Source: Octopus sinensis (Eukaryota). From it: a stretch of 64,000 nt of DNA. The translations under genes and the position numbers were made by a program. The notes under the pieces were generated by a model that saw only the letters and a program-made list of their open reading frames with translations, had not been told where the DNA came from and did no database searches. Location of the stretch: the NCBI RefSeq assembly GCF_006345805.1, contig NC_043012.1, positions 53,630,001 to 53,694,000 on the forward strand. The letters are read 5' to 3'. Below, piece after piece: positions 1,484-63,322 of the stretch; within the stretch, counting starts at the first letter, position 1, and the number at the start of each line of letters is the position of its first letter.

Positions 1484-4400
1484 GTAAGTATTTTATACTG
1501 ACGTTGAAAGAAAGCGTAGTCATCTATTAAATTATCGAATAATGATAACATATTTCGTATTTCTTTATAAACAGGGTAATCGATGATGTTGAATATCCAG
1601 GTGAAGTTAAAGAAAAGGAGCAAGCTAAAAAGGCGTACGAAAAAGCCAAACGCAAAGGTCAAAGTGCTGGTCATGTTGCCAAAAAGTTAGTAAATTCTTT
1701 TATTCTGAAAGATCAAATTCCGTTCTTTTCTTTGTAACTACTTTCCAAACGAAATTTCTTCTACTCAAAGAATTTAGGTTCTTTTTTCATTCGAATTCAG
1801 TGGCTGTTTTCAAAATCGATGTCATGAATCAATGAATATATAATTATTATTTGTTAGGTTGAAGCCGTAAAACTGCGTGTCTTAGGGGTTATGGGATTGC
1901 GCTTATGATCAAGAGAGTGTGATTGCGTTGTGCTTTTGAGCAAAAATATCATTTCACATTACCTCACACCGCTTTTGAAGGTGAATAGTCCTGTGACAGA
2001 CTGGAAAAACAGCCTGATGATCCAACGGCTCGAGAAGGATCTTCGATCTTCTTTTTTTAACTTAGAGGCGGAAAGCTGGCAGGATGCTGAGCGAGTTAGA
2101 CGAAAAGCTTAACGGCATTTCTTTCGCCTCTTTACGCTTAGCGTTCAAGTTTCCACCGAAGTTGAATTTGGATTTCATTCAATCGGTTCGATGAGATAAG
2201 TACCACTTGAGCACCGGTGTCATTTTAATCAACTTAGCCTCTTACTTAAAGCCACTGGCTTTACTTAATCAACTAATCCTCTTACTTTAAGACACCGTAC
2301 CAAAATTCGAAACAATTATTTGCGTTGAATGAATTTGTTCCAGTACGTTACATTCTGAGTTCAAATAGTACCAAAGTTAATTGTGCTTTTCTTCAAACTG
2401 GGATCGACAAAATTAAGTACCAGTCAAGATAAGACAAACAAATGCCCATACAAATTATGAAGTAGCAATTGATACGATCAACTAATATCCATTTTCTAAA
2501 AATTACTAGCATTGTACATAAATTATGAATAATCATTAAATTATTTTTACGGTGGGTGGACAGAAAAGTCGAAACGTCTGTAGCAATAGAATAATATCAT
2601 TAGTTCCGGATTTTCTCATTTTGAGTTCAAATCCTGGTTAGGTTAACTTAGCATTTCAAAATTCCAACTCGATAATATAAGATACCAGTGAAGTATTGGA
2701 GTCAATTCAATTATCAAAGGAGCCCCCACCTCCAAATCTCTTAACATTTTGACTGCAAAAACATTATGAAGTTAACTTTCTGTTTTCTTTTTATTTATAA
2801 TCCCTTTCACACAGGATGCACAAATAGAATATAAACATACCTCAGTAATTGACTGGTGCTCGTTCTATTGTACATTTTTACTGAAACACTATGAGGCGAA
2901 CAATCACCATCTAGTCAGGTGGTGATGAGCAAATATGCACACAACAGTGCTCAAGCACGCGCACACAGACATACCTACACAAACACACACATACATATGC
3001 ACGCACACATACAGACAACAACACATACATATATATAGGAATATATATATGTGTGTGTCTATAGCTTCTTATAATATTCTTTCGATATATTTTCCTCCAT
3101 TTATTTGTTTAGCCCTACCGCCACAGATTCACACATAGCCATAACTTATCTGCTCATAGTGACACACTTTCGTTAAAAGTGTAAGGTGTGAAGAAAGGTC
3201 AGTGTTCTTGATCCTTTATATATTTCACGAGCTCGGAGACAGAAATCGCGTTAACCAGGCATAATGAATCATGCTGTAGGTGAACGGGAACAGCGGTTGT
3301 GGATATTTTGCTGTTATCTCTATTCGTGGTTACAGTGTACTCGAGTTGCCCTAATTAAATAAGAGCCAGTTGAATACTGCAGTCTATCTCATCGACTAAC
3401 CTTCTTCACTTTCCGTCTAAGTAACTCGCTCACATCGTTTCTGATGAAGGAATATCCCTAATATCCCAGAAACAGTTGTAAGACTACCTTTCTATTTGTA
3501 CATGTCCTATAAATTCCACACTGCCTTGGCTTTGTTGTCTCATTTTATTTAACATATACATGCTCACACAAGACTCGCAATAGACTACTCACTCGTATTA
3601 TCGTCGAACCAAGAACCTAACTACGGTCCTCCCGTAGCCTTACCTCTCATCTTAGTTCTTCTGGATACCAATACTTTTCATATCATTGATATATATTGCT
3701 AAACACATGCAAATGAAGTAAAAGCAACCATAGTGTAACAAATATTATTAAACACATATACTAATCTGTGTGGAGGCGCGTGGCTTAGTGGTTAGGGTGT
3801 CAGCATCATGATCGTAAGATTGTGGTTTTGATTACTGGACCGGGCGACGCGTTGTGTTCTTGAGCAAAACACTTCATTTCACGTTGCTCCAGTTCCGTCC
3901 AGCAGCGGAACACATACGCCATAGAAACCGGGAAATCGGGCCCATGAGCCTGGCTAGGCTTTAAAAGAGCACGTTTATTATTTTTATACTAATGTCTATG
4001 CATTGTGAATTTTGCAGTGGCTACAATAGCGTAGCGGAGTAAATAACTCTTATGTCGCCGATGTTGACACACCTTAGGGTCGGGCGAGATAACTCACTCT
4101 TAGTCTCATTTGGGAGTGATGGATATCGATATTTCGCCATTTGTGTGCCTTTTCAGTATAAAGCAACTGCTTGAGTTGAAGGCGAAACAGAAACAAGTCC
4201 GTGTCCAAGTTTTTTTCTTCTGGGGTGTTTTGTAAATGTATTCTTTGAATAATGCTGTGCTCAATATTCTATTCAAAATCCTATATCCTATGAAATATTC
4301 AATATTTAGACCTCGAGATACAAACAAATTCAAGATTAATATCAATGTTGCTGCTCTGAGAAATGTGACATTCGAAGTTCGGTACCAAGAGTTGTTAAGA

Positions 4401-6412
4401 AGAAAACTCGGTTTGTATGAACATTCCATCTACGTGAACCCTGGTCAACCTGTTGAAGATGTAAAAATACAAGTCTATATAGAAGAATCTAAAGAAATTC
4501 GTATCTTGAGGGTACCACCTTTACGTTCAACTGATCCAACATTCACTGACGCGACACCAGAATCAAGTGAGTATTATCTTGCGAACGTTCTGTGGGCAAG
4601 AGGGAGTTCATTTTTGTTAACTTCTCTAGTATATACATACTTAGAATGATCATAATTCTTCCGTATGTAACAACAATTTTAAGTATAAATATTATCATGG
4701 GGGTACTGTACATAAAAGACATTTATAATATCTCATTTTAAACCAGAAAATTCTATAGGGTTATTAAAAGACTATTGAATTTTTCGCTATGTATATGTGT
4801 GAGATCAGGAGAAAAATTATCTCATCTGAGTTTCTTATGAGCATAAATCAGTACTAACGGACTCTGTGTTTGAGATGTCTGCGAGTAAACCGATAGCGCT
4901 ACTCCAGAGTCGTACTCTAATATGTGAAAAATTCTGGTTGAACAAAATGATAATACGAATGCATCATAAAATATCCATAAATTACTTATTCATAAGCAGA
5001 CAAAGAATGCTAAATTCACTTAAGTGACTATTATTTTATATCAAAATTTTCATCGCACAAATTACGATCATCTGACGTGATATCACCGCTTCAATGTTTT
5101 GTGACGTATTATAGTGTGTGTGTGTGTGTGTGTGTGTGTGTTGTGTGTGTGTGTTGTGTGTGGGTGTGTGTATGGGTGTGTGTGTGGTGTGTGTTGTGTG
5201 TGTGTGTTGTGTGTGGGTGTGTGTATGGGTGTGTGTGTGGGTGTGTGTTGTGGAGGGATCTTGACCACCGCCACGTGACTGAAAGTGGACTGATGCATTT
5301 GAATAATAATAAAGAAACTGTTTCAACCGAGAGTAGTTTACAGTAAGAGTTGACAGTGGTACTTGATTGCATTGATCGTCCGTATGGTTTACTGTATTAC
5401 TTTAATAACTTTACGTTTGGAATAGAATGGATTGCTTTCTGTGTGAACATATTTACTCTGCGAAAGTCACATTCTATATAACCATATCCAAATATCTATT
5501 TGGGCAATGCTATTCTTACACACTTATGCACAACTCCCAACATAGCAGGATGCATGTATGCATTTATATATATATATATATATAAACAAAGATAAATGCG
5601 ATACAATAAAATTAATTATAATCGCCGGTGTACCAGTACACGCCATATATTATACATATATCATTACATTCAAGGCGAAGAGTGCACTAGATACACAATA
5701 GCTGGATAAATTTAGTGAGATGAAAATTAAAAACTTTTACAAACTTAACTTTTCTTATACTGCAGTTTCGCCAAATTCAGTAATAAAAATAGTATTTATT
5801 TACTCAGGCTGGCTCTTCAGTAAGATTCCTGTTAATGATGGGAAGACCATATCAATAGACCCATGTGCGTCTATCGAAATGCTCATTCTAAACTATTCAA
5901 AACACTGCGCAGACTCAGAACAAACCCGACAAAATAGGGGATTGTGGTATATCGTCTAACGGTCAGAAATTTATCGAGAGAATATGTAAACAAAGATAAA
6001 TGCGATACAATAAAATTAATTATAATCGCCGGTGTACCAGTACACGCCATTGGCTACTATTTCCATCAGACCGACCAAAAATTTGCTTGGCGTCATTCTC
6101 TGTTACAAATATAATTTCGACATTTCATTAAAATATTCGGAAACAATAAAGTTTTCGCGAAATTTCGTTAACAGCGACCAATCCAGACGCAACAATTTCG
6201 CGCCCTTCAATAAAGACAGCTGAAATTACATACGTACCATCAGACACTGGAACTCTGGATGGTATTTTTGAAATCAAGTATGATATAGACCGACGCAAAC
6301 AGTTCAATGGTGATATATTGGTAAGTGAAATTTGCCTTATATTTTAATTCTGCACTCACATTGTTATTACAGTATATGTTCTCACGGCTACACACACACA
6401 CACACACATGTA

Positions 6413-25256: not shown

Positions 25257-25750
25257 ATATATATACTTATTATATATACATATTATATATATATATTATA
25301 TACATATATATATATATACATATTATATATATATATAATATACATATATATATATTATATATATATATATTATATATATATAATATATATATAAGTAATA
25401 CTAAGCAATAAAGGGTTAAGCAACGAATTGCCTTACCACAGACCGAATTTAGAAATAGCAGTCAAAGAGTTATAGCTATTTCTTCTACTAAAAAGGGAGA
25501 TCTCGGTAAAAAACACAGCAATTGGAAGAATTGCTGTGTTTTTTACTGAGATCTCCCTTTTTAGTAGAAGAAATAGCTATAACTCTTTGACTGCTATTTC
25601 TAAATTCGGTCTGTGGTAAGGCAATTCGTTGCTAAACACTTTATTGCTTAGTATTACTTAAATTTTCCTCGAATGAGGCTTTTACATGCCGAAGACTACT
25701 TGGTGTAATTGATAATTATTCCAAATTAATTAATTTCACCCTTCATTATA

Positions 25751-39300: not shown

Positions 39301-40109
39301 TTTTGTTTTTTGTATTTATTTTCGTGTAACATCGTCCGTTTTTCTGTCCTTGTTTCGTATATATTCGATCCTTTTTCCAAGAAATCTAATGCTCGTAGCT
39401 TAGTTTTTCCTTGGGGCTGGCCAAATCGGAGCAATCTCAAGATTAATCAGCCGAAGTTGCGGTTCTTGACTGAAGATTAGAGGCTTCGAATGACCCGTCC
39501 GTTTTCGTATCGTCTATTTGAATGTTTTGCGTTCTTGTCCCATTTTATATATTTTTTATACATATATATATATATGTGTGTGTGTGTGTTTGTGTATGTC
39601 TGTGAGCGTGTGTTTGCATGTATATATAGATAGATAGAGACAGGCAGACAGACAGATAACGATAGAGAATATAGAGACTGTTAGATCCTCAAACTTTGTT
39701 TTTTTTTATTTTACACTTTCATACAGCATACCTTTATGACTATTACTACCGAGAAGTGTTTTCACTGCACAAAATGTGGGTAGTTGCACATGCAACCGGG
39801 CACAATTTTTCTGTGCAACATCGTTCAAGGTTTTTCAACCAGCCAGGCCCGAAGTGAACTGAATAAAGTTAGCATTTTGTTGGTTAGGATCCACATATAT
39901 ATGTGTGAGTGTGTGTGTGTGTGTGTGGTGTGTGTGTGTGTGTGTGCGTGTGTGTGTGTGTGTGTGTGTTTTCAGTTTTTATAAATAACATGGAAAAAAT
40001 AAACAGTTACCAGGGTAGCAAAAATTCACACAAGTACCAAGGATGTAACAGCCCACATATAAAAGTAGAAACTCCAGGTTTAGGTGGAATGCTTTTTATA
40101 ATGTAGATA

Positions 40110-40430
40110 AATAAATAAATGAAGTTAAACACAGTTGTTATTCAAATTCTTTTACTTTTTAGATATTTTTAGAAGACAACATTGGTATTATTCCAGAAGG
40201 AATAAAATGGTGCAAAACAATGCAATCTTCTCATCAGGGAAAGAAAGAAACGAAACGCATCAATAAGACTAAAATGTCATTTTGATGTGTTTGGTTCCTT
40301 TCCGTCCCTGTTGAGAAGATTGCATTGTTTTACACCATTTTATTCATTCTGGAATAATACCAATGTTGTCTACTAAAAATATGTCGGAAGTAAACGAATT
40401 TGAATAACGCCTGCGTTTAACTGCATGTAT
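40110..40430. repeat. Diverged inverted repeat, ~150-bp arms
   Basis: gacaacattggtattattccagaa / ttctggaataataccaatgttgtc and other matches. Confidence 0.88.
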
Positions 40431-41414
40431 GTATGTATATATATATATATTTATTCATTAAGAATCGAGGTACATCAATGTGTATGATGCCGTGAAATGG
40501 CTAGATAAAACCGTGAAATAATCCATCATCATCGTAATCCCCAATAATACAGACTGGATACTTCCTCTTATTTACCAAAGCCCCGATTAATTGCGAGGAT
40601 ATTGGTGTGACGCAAGTACAGGTAAATAATAGCCGAAGGGAGTTTAACTTCGCGACTATTGTCTCTCTAGGGTTCTTTATTTAATGTAGTCGTAACAGAT
40701 TACATCATGCATTACATGAATTACCAGGTTCATCAGATGTTATGTAAACATAGTGAACCCGTGGTTAACCGTTTAATTTCCGTAAGCAGATTTTTTAATG
40801 TTAAAGTTAACAATATACGAGTCTAACTGCTGAGTATGTTCTAGAGCTGGAAATCAATTATGGTGCAGATGAAGGAGGGAAAGAAGAAACAATTTATGGC
40901 CCAATACCATAAGTTAACAGGAGGAAACTCTTGTTTTTACAGACAAAACGGTGCAAAGGGTGGAATTATATGCTCAGTGTTTACGCAGAGCAGACATTTT
41001 GGTCGGTTCAAGGCAGACATATTATAGTTTACGTAAATTACACACACACACACACATATATCCCACCCGACGCCACTCCATTTATCTCCTTCATCTCCCA
41101 CTCCGATACACTCTCACTCATGCTCACCCACCCCTCCACTACCCTAACCCTAACCCTCCCCCGTACCGCTTCCTTGACTCTCTCTCCTCCCAGCCTCCCA
41201 CCACCTCTACCATCATTTCTCCACTTAAACCACACTCCTCCACCCAGTTCCTCCATCTACGCCAGCTCTGCAGTGATGACCATGAATTTGAGACCCAGTC
41301 TCAACTCATGGGTCACCACTTCACCGTAGGTGGATGGACACTCACCATTATCCAAGCCACAAAGCATATTGTCCCGTCTACTAACTTATCTGCTAGCTCC
41401 CTTCATTAATAATG

Positions 41415-43997: not shown

Positions 43998-63322
<19,325 letters not shown>

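Follow-up and report, generated by a model that had tools for sequence, protein, structure and literature searches.

Metazoan non-LTR retrozymes are described, in the available parts of PMC7229834, as tandem non-coding units of 150-450 bp with a GC content below 50%, each carrying a type I hammerhead with a short helix III, dispersed as monomers to multimers, represented in RNA-type data and coexisting with Penelope-like elements; their units measure 350-390 bp in mussel, 220-245 bp in coral and 330-350 bp in axolotl (Cervera and de la Pena 2020, PMC7229834). The octopus family described here shares these features and is a non-LTR retrozyme, a class of element already known, with a unit of 404 nt and arrays of up to 11 units, while its copy in the window (the whole 64,000-nt stretch of Octopus sinensis DNA that was analysed) is only a 1.16-mer. 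It differs from those retrozymes in lacking a visible target-site duplication (TSD), its target being (TA)n, and in that its predicted circle is not unusually stable (MFE of the circular monomer -83.2 versus -77.1 +/- 5.8 for shuffles, z=-1.06). A fixed 3' end, a 5' truncation series and uniform arrays, all found here, are not described in the available text of PMC7229834.

Penelope-like elements, as far as the available text of PMC11167929 and PMC8557442 goes, are similar in having a fixed 3' end beyond the hammerhead, an AT-rich target, 5' truncation, tandem structure and an indiscernible TSD. The octopus family bears the ends of a non-autonomous Penelope passenger (fixed 3' end, microsatellite target, 5' truncation); unlike Penelope-like elements, it lacks an ORF and has a start site resembling its (TA)n target in five of six letters; in the anole element, by contrast, initiation takes place at a site without homology to the cut DNA (PMC11167929). 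The retrozymes of Li, Clavereau and Pollet 2026 (bioRxiv 10.64898/2026.07.22.740005, available portion) likewise occur with endonuclease-bearing Penelope-like elements and have Penelope-like ends; in contrast to them, no pLTR sequence match was obtained here and most arrays look born at length. A plant-type LTR retrozyme was rejected, considering the type I topology, the single hammerhead and the arbitrary length of the repeats, as against the type III hammerheads in two LTRs and the 4-bp TSD of the plant elements.

We consider it rather likely that the window insert, a 5'-truncated member of a 404-nt non-coding hammerhead retrozyme family residing in (TA)n, was made by a Penelope-type reverse transcriptase that copied a predicted monomeric circle slightly more than once. 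More-than-unit copying from a circle is already published (PMC4209133, PMC7229834, available parts), circles having been proposed as templates for such copies in PMC4209133. Judged on titles and abstract beginnings, the literature yielded neither a cephalopod retrozyme family nor a haplotype test such as that given below, and the available text of PMC13282606 mentions neither ribozyme nor retrozyme.

The element in the window

The main features are collected in Table 1. At an offset of 404 nt the maximal exact repeat is 64 nt long, and the identical 64-mers, the minus-strand type I hammerhead and the (TA)n at the 3' end that a sequence-only reading had reported were all confirmed. A 25-mer from the repeat has 349 exact matches in the genome versus none for its reversed control; the repeat is therefore not due to chance.

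Table 1. Positions of the retrozyme copy, its parts and its surroundings in the window.
Feature	Position	Strand	Remark
Retrozyme insertion, 404-nt unit + 64 nt (1.16-mer, 468 nt)	5583..6050	-	5' end 6050, 3' end 5583
64-nt redundancy, first copy	5987..6050	-	6050 is the 5' truncation point of the window copy
64-nt redundancy, second copy	5583..5646	-	Fixed 3' end of the family
(TA)10 microsatellite	5565..5584	.	Target at the 3' junction of the element
Type I hammerhead motif	5753..5825	-	Predicted cut between 5758 and 5757; core and stems assigned by eye and from pair counts
Substitution private to the window copy	5885	-	1 of 68 loci covering the site
Host-gene exon	6175..6321	+	Spliced contigs in runs X3 and X8

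The element lies antisense within an intron, 125 nt upstream of the tabulated exon, and the neighbouring host exons are at about 4537 and 10843. The sequence-only reading labelled the host gene ITIH, a putative name that fits a known motif; a Pfam search with one host exon assigned no family. Window positions 4210-6374 and 50762-52330 are tandem paralogous host genes, 75-81% alike over exons and parts of introns. The similarity to the paralog that had been said to resume directly after 6050 does so, the alignment picking up at 6051 (6051-6374 versus 52010-52330, 81%). The paralog was discarded as an empty site, as positions 5000-5582 do not align with it; no closer paralog exists. In both DNA-type runs a flank contig terminates exactly at 6050, as might be expected if another allele lacked the junction, and no empty-site contig was seen among the pieces listed (420 others stand outside that list).

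At its 5' junction the window copy is not accompanied by TA. Its truncation point is immediately upstream of a predicted GC-rich hairpin, a stopping place of many short copies. No TSD is discernible, which is explained by the target being (TA)n. With one private substitution in 468 nt relative to its own haplotype group, the copy is, on sequence grounds, young, as had been proposed. Since it holds a single hammerhead, release of a monomer is not expected, and it is probably a dead end.

Family structure, ends and target

Within the 2.72 Gb of the genome searched, similarity returned at least 105 matches at 95-100% (40 of 782 candidates scored), while a 26-mer across the 3' junction gave 159 exact matches, so that the family comprises at least 159 loci. 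The loci analysed were the 43 behind 100 listed of the 349 25-mer matches, 100 listed of the 159 junction loci, and others, in total 121 loci including that of the window copy; of the 127 chains obtained from them, 122 are elements with the standard end.

With unit position 1 set at window position 6050 and counting along the minus strand, the 3' end falls at positions 63-70 in 44/44 elements from the 43 loci among the 25-mer matches listed. It is directly followed by (TA)n of at least 10 nt in 40 of these 44, and TA is also found on the 5' side in 27. Because the 25-mer lies near the 3' end, a hammerhead-chosen set was added as a check, and it shows the common 3' end in 31 of 33 elements; of the two exceptions, one ends at an AU-rich stretch near 388 and the other is a palindromic fragment. 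Sister families, about 77-88% identical, have 3' end and target in common. This end lies 175 nt downstream of the predicted cleavage site, and we infer that it is an internal start of reverse transcription. Five of the six unit letters at the junction are identical to (TA)n, and most copies bear the target's letter there, which suggests priming by the nicked microsatellite.

The 5' ends behave otherwise, 66 distinct ones being found in 99 junction-chosen elements (among the matches listed); their spread over the unit departs slightly from uniformity (KS p=0.035, n=70). Among these 99, 29 elements are at most 64 nt long, 24 measure 65-404 nt, 28 measure 405-808 nt and 18 are longer, and element lengths as a whole span 31 to 4,541 nt, up to 11 full units. 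A rearranged locus (L171), the window copy and six similarity-chosen loci were excluded from the 5'-end counts. Considering this variability, the 64-nt redundancy in the window is one draw from a truncation series. The circular permutation that the sequence-only reading looked for is accordingly present at one end only: the 5' ends vary round the unit, and the start points are not permuted because the 3' end, the presumed origin of reverse transcription, stays constant.

The longest stop-to-stop frame in the element has 85 aa (56 aa on the ribozyme strand), and the element is non-coding.

Hammerhead motif and its conservation

In unit coordinates the hammerhead occupies 226-298, with stem I at 226-230 and 294-298 (window 5825-5821 with 5757-5753), CUGAAGA at 231-237 (5820-5814), stem II at 238-241 and 278-281 (5813-5810 with 5773-5770, plus a long AU-rich extension) and GAAA at 282-285 (5769-5766); the predicted cut, at GUA, follows 293. 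Stem III has 2 bp with a palindromic UGCA loop; a short stem III with such a loop is a form reported to work as a dimer (PMC4209133, available part). Only one of nine retrozyme dimers tested cleaved according to the available portion of Li et al. 2026, a finding that counts against the circle route. An Rfam scan gave no hits at the gathering score, and none of the 7 hits up to E=10 was a hammerhead. Stems I and III are only weakly formed in the predicted circular monomer, which, like its ordinary stability, counts against the circle.

Stem pairing is kept in 98.9% of 176 cells, and one compensatory change is found in stem II of a sister family. In family A, whose loci were picked independently of the hammerhead, variants shared by at least two loci affect 0/31 functional hammerhead positions versus 52/373 others (p=0.012); with the stricter threshold of at least three loci the figures are 0/31 versus 34/373 (p=0.059, not significant). 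The conservation claim rests on this family A test, as conservation in 16 sister loci is partly circular, these having been chosen by the hammerhead pattern. Array-fixed variants occupy 41 positions, none of them functional, while changes within arrays affect both classes alike (8/3174 functional versus 115/38008 other). Hammerhead variation falls on the tolerant positions 7 and 17 plus loop III; as evidence against selection, core letters are lost at two loci. Selection on the hammerhead in templates is thus favoured at the looser threshold (p=0.012), as far as the pattern of variants tells. Such selection for cutting would be most easily explained by circularised cut monomers, since the cut strips the core from a linear template.

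It also speaks against selection that one sister lineage (L241, L248, L256) lacks the G10.1-C11.1 pair and is nevertheless present at several loci, with multiple units at two of these; the lineage provides a natural test of the need for cleavage. At L241, L248, L255 and L256, A replaces G at hammerhead position 10.1, with stem II covarying. For the anole element, cleavage by the hammerhead is reported to be unnecessary for insertion in vitro (PMC11167929, available part), which counts against the circle route. The octopus family also bears on the role of hammerheads in Penelope-type transposition.

RNA-type runs

Two runs from two studies, X3 and X8, are RNA-type by an automated guess, no run with the unit being on record as RNA. 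Both contain a 434-nt contig (404+30) covering the unit, together with the spliced host exon, and intron cover is absent; the family is transcribed if the guess about these runs is right. In our own reading the 434-nt contig is a closed loop in the assembly graph, and it fits a circle or a multimer transcript alike; the contigs give no strand. At 5885 the unit contigs of both runs carry the family allele and not the substitution of the window copy, indicating that the RNA originates from other loci. In X8 a further contig runs into the unit out of a (TA)n flank.

Uniform arrays and the nature of the template

The family can be used to discriminate between arrays that were long from the outset, having arisen from RNA circles, and arrays that have grown in place. 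Over 34 family-polymorphic sites there are 1,392 locus-by-site cells; the units within an element are concordant in 1,374 of these and discordant in 18, versus 398 +/- 19 discordant cells when units are shuffled among loci. The 25 arrays of at least two full units represent 13 haplotypes, small steps apart, and the mean distance is 0.51% within arrays versus 2.35% between loci. Seven variants are each private to one locus and present in every unit that covers the site, for one of them in 8/8. The 11-unit array shows 0.14% divergence, and substitutions are absent from three arrays of 6, 4 and 4 units. The counts leave out calls lying no more than 3 nt from a gap, together with the initial 8 nt and the last junction bases, and indels were ignored as probable assembly errors; assembly polishing could mask some heterogeneity and would not be expected to create locus-specific fixed variants. 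Haplotype-uniform arrays with fixed private variants thus indicate that each array descends from one monomer sequence.

A circle would yield a one-monomer array in a single step, and on these array sequences a monomer circle copied from a fixed internal start is the favoured template. Against the circle stands that no variant was found to be single-unit in one array yet fixed in another. Uniformity can also be produced by local expansion or conversion, which does occur: private variants are present in only a subset of units in 6 of the 15 arrays with at least three full units, and L148 contains a 4-unit block duplication (a multimeric circle was rejected for this locus, since two variants break the 4-unit period as a single block duplication predicts). 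These observations speak for a model, favoured by Li et al. 2026 in the available portion of the preprint, in which Penelope machinery copies linear uncleaved multimers and short insertions expand locally by unequal crossing-over or conversion. The same model would accommodate the spread of a sister lineage with a non-canonical hammerhead and the X8 contig reaching the unit from the (TA)n flank, and uncleaved RNA is the main in vitro substrate for the anole element (PMC11167929, available part). Nonetheless, homogenisation would have had to take place independently no fewer than 13 times, and quickly enough for arrays of 4 to 11 units to be near-identical; in most long arrays, moreover, neighbouring units differ about as much as units far apart. 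The model also offers no reason for selection on the hammerhead, as cutting would shorten the template to 175 nt and remove the catalytic core. Taken together, we regard copying of linear multimers with local expansion as possible and on the whole unlikely.

Linear self-cleaved monomers, copied by a reverse transcriptase that on reaching the 5' end switches back to the 3' end, time after time and without a covalent circle, would account for hammerhead selection, and for uniform arrays too if the jump stays on the same molecule. Jumps between molecules would yield mosaic arrays, and a linear self-cleaved monomer should leave copies of at most ~175 nt stopping at 294. Instead, the predicted cleavage site is crossed 142 times with 4 stops (4/146 passes), stops that lie within background given that 16% of other windows are as high, so that no pile-up of 5' ends was found there; only 1 of the 99 elements is 171-180 nt long. 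Nor were recurrent indels found at the cleavage site in the ten long arrays listed. Repeated jumping on linear monomers is hence judged very unlikely.

The circular template advanced by the sequence-only reading is in this way favoured from family-level evidence, and not from the 64-nt overlap on which that reading relied, which reflects the point of 5' truncation of the window copy.

Probable Penelope-type machinery and proposed mechanism

The family shows the architecture of a Penelope 3' end (hammerhead, U-rich stretch, fixed end at (TA)n), as would be expected if each element were the ordinary pseudo-LTR and tail of an autonomous Penelope-like element truncated before its ORF. However, another unit or target DNA is found upstream of the unit, and a tblastn search with a Penelope-type ORF in the 3 kb upstream of 140 elements found none (0/140) abutting a same-strand ORF, with 0/20 ORF hits at further loci; this search, made with a single query, may miss distant clades. 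Same-strand Penelope fragments occur at two elements, 534 and 1,719 nt away, and opposite-strand fragments at nine, as would be expected where elements share a target. An ordinary pseudo-LTR is therefore a highly improbable reading, and an autonomous Penelope-like element, with an RT + GIY-YIG ORF between pseudo-LTRs, is disfavoured, no such ORF adjoining any of the 140 elements in this search. Fixed ends with TSDs or attachment to a Penelope ORF, by which the sequence-only reading would have recognised such an element, contrast with what is found: no TSD is visible, the 5' ends vary from copy to copy, and none of the copies searched adjoins a Penelope ORF.

As to the enzyme, a young Neptune-type Penelope-like element was found at L238:1174-4877 with an intact 781-aa RT + GIY-YIG ORF (RT E=1.2e-6, just under the Pfam cut-off; C-x4-C-x2-C linker; GIY-YIG E=3.3e-6). 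Craig et al. 2021 (PMC8557442, available part) connect this linker with microsatellite targeting and with the clades Neptune and Nematis, and describe a bias of Neptune and Naiad towards microsatellites. An overlapping upstream open frame of 479 codons also lies in the L238 element. All 30 of 30 loci of this Neptune family carry one fixed 3' motif, 24 going straight into TA and 6 via an extra tail. Comparison of the family's tail with the retrozyme gave nothing significant (best E=1.6; one family in depth, 27,817 candidates), and tails in 976 kb of flanks gave a weak AT-rich match only. A short-stem hammerhead pattern had 3 matches, none resembling the unit, and all but one of the matches to a loose tail pattern came from the retrozyme family or its sisters (first 100 of 354 rows). 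A Neptune-type Penelope reverse transcriptase is probably the driver; with no significant tail match and the other families only sampled, the partner is assigned at class level only.

In the cycle that we propose, tandem loci would be transcribed, paired hammerheads would excise monomers, and a host ligase would close these into circles, as for other retrozymes (PMC7229834, available part). A Neptune-type Penelope protein would then nick (TA)n, priming would take place at an internal AU-rich site that is constant in the family and lies 175 nt beyond the point of ligation, and synthesis would run round the circle until it aborts. Internal initiation is demonstrated for the anole Penelope-like element (Frangieh et al. 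2024, PMC11167929, available part). The full proposal, namely rolling-circle target-primed reverse transcription of a ribozyme-closed circle with a (TA)n-primed internal start, each array a clone of one monomer and the hammerhead selected only in templates, is one to which we give slightly more credence than doubt. If true, it would provide direct population evidence for the hitherto hypothetical life cycle of retrozymes, as well as a natural substrate for finding the driving Penelope enzyme. The value lies in the family, which is young, has more than 100 loci and shows nested haplotypes, the window locus itself being a passive copy.

Other elements and irregular loci

At L239:9083-9160, and also at L153, the 5' end of a copy is joined to ~12 TTAGGG telomeric repeats at an internal chromosome position. 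Within the unit the join lies where the sequence resembles a telomere, and telomerase may have acted when the 5' end was joined. L183:3200-3620 is a long palindrome that takes in the flanks, has the internal hairpin of the unit at its centre and contains two inverted hammerheads ending at unit position 302; the same junction occurs as a loose end in run X18. L121:1-6501 holds two near-identical elements of 552-554 nt, 1.86 kb apart, having the 5' end and flanks in common, which reflect either a segmental duplication or an assembly duplication.

Unrelated hammerhead families, most ending in (TA)n, were observed at L181, L182:5432, L095:2389, L107:1895, L143:409, L135:1181, L169:1471 and L196:5121. 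Among them, L181 is a long tandem array with units of ~520-550 nt, and at L135 and L169 the hammerhead adjoins its own reverse complement. In the window itself, long inverted repeats with spacers of 5-6 nt are located at 25389-25663 and 40101-40444 (135 nt at 97% and 169 nt at 85%, respectively).
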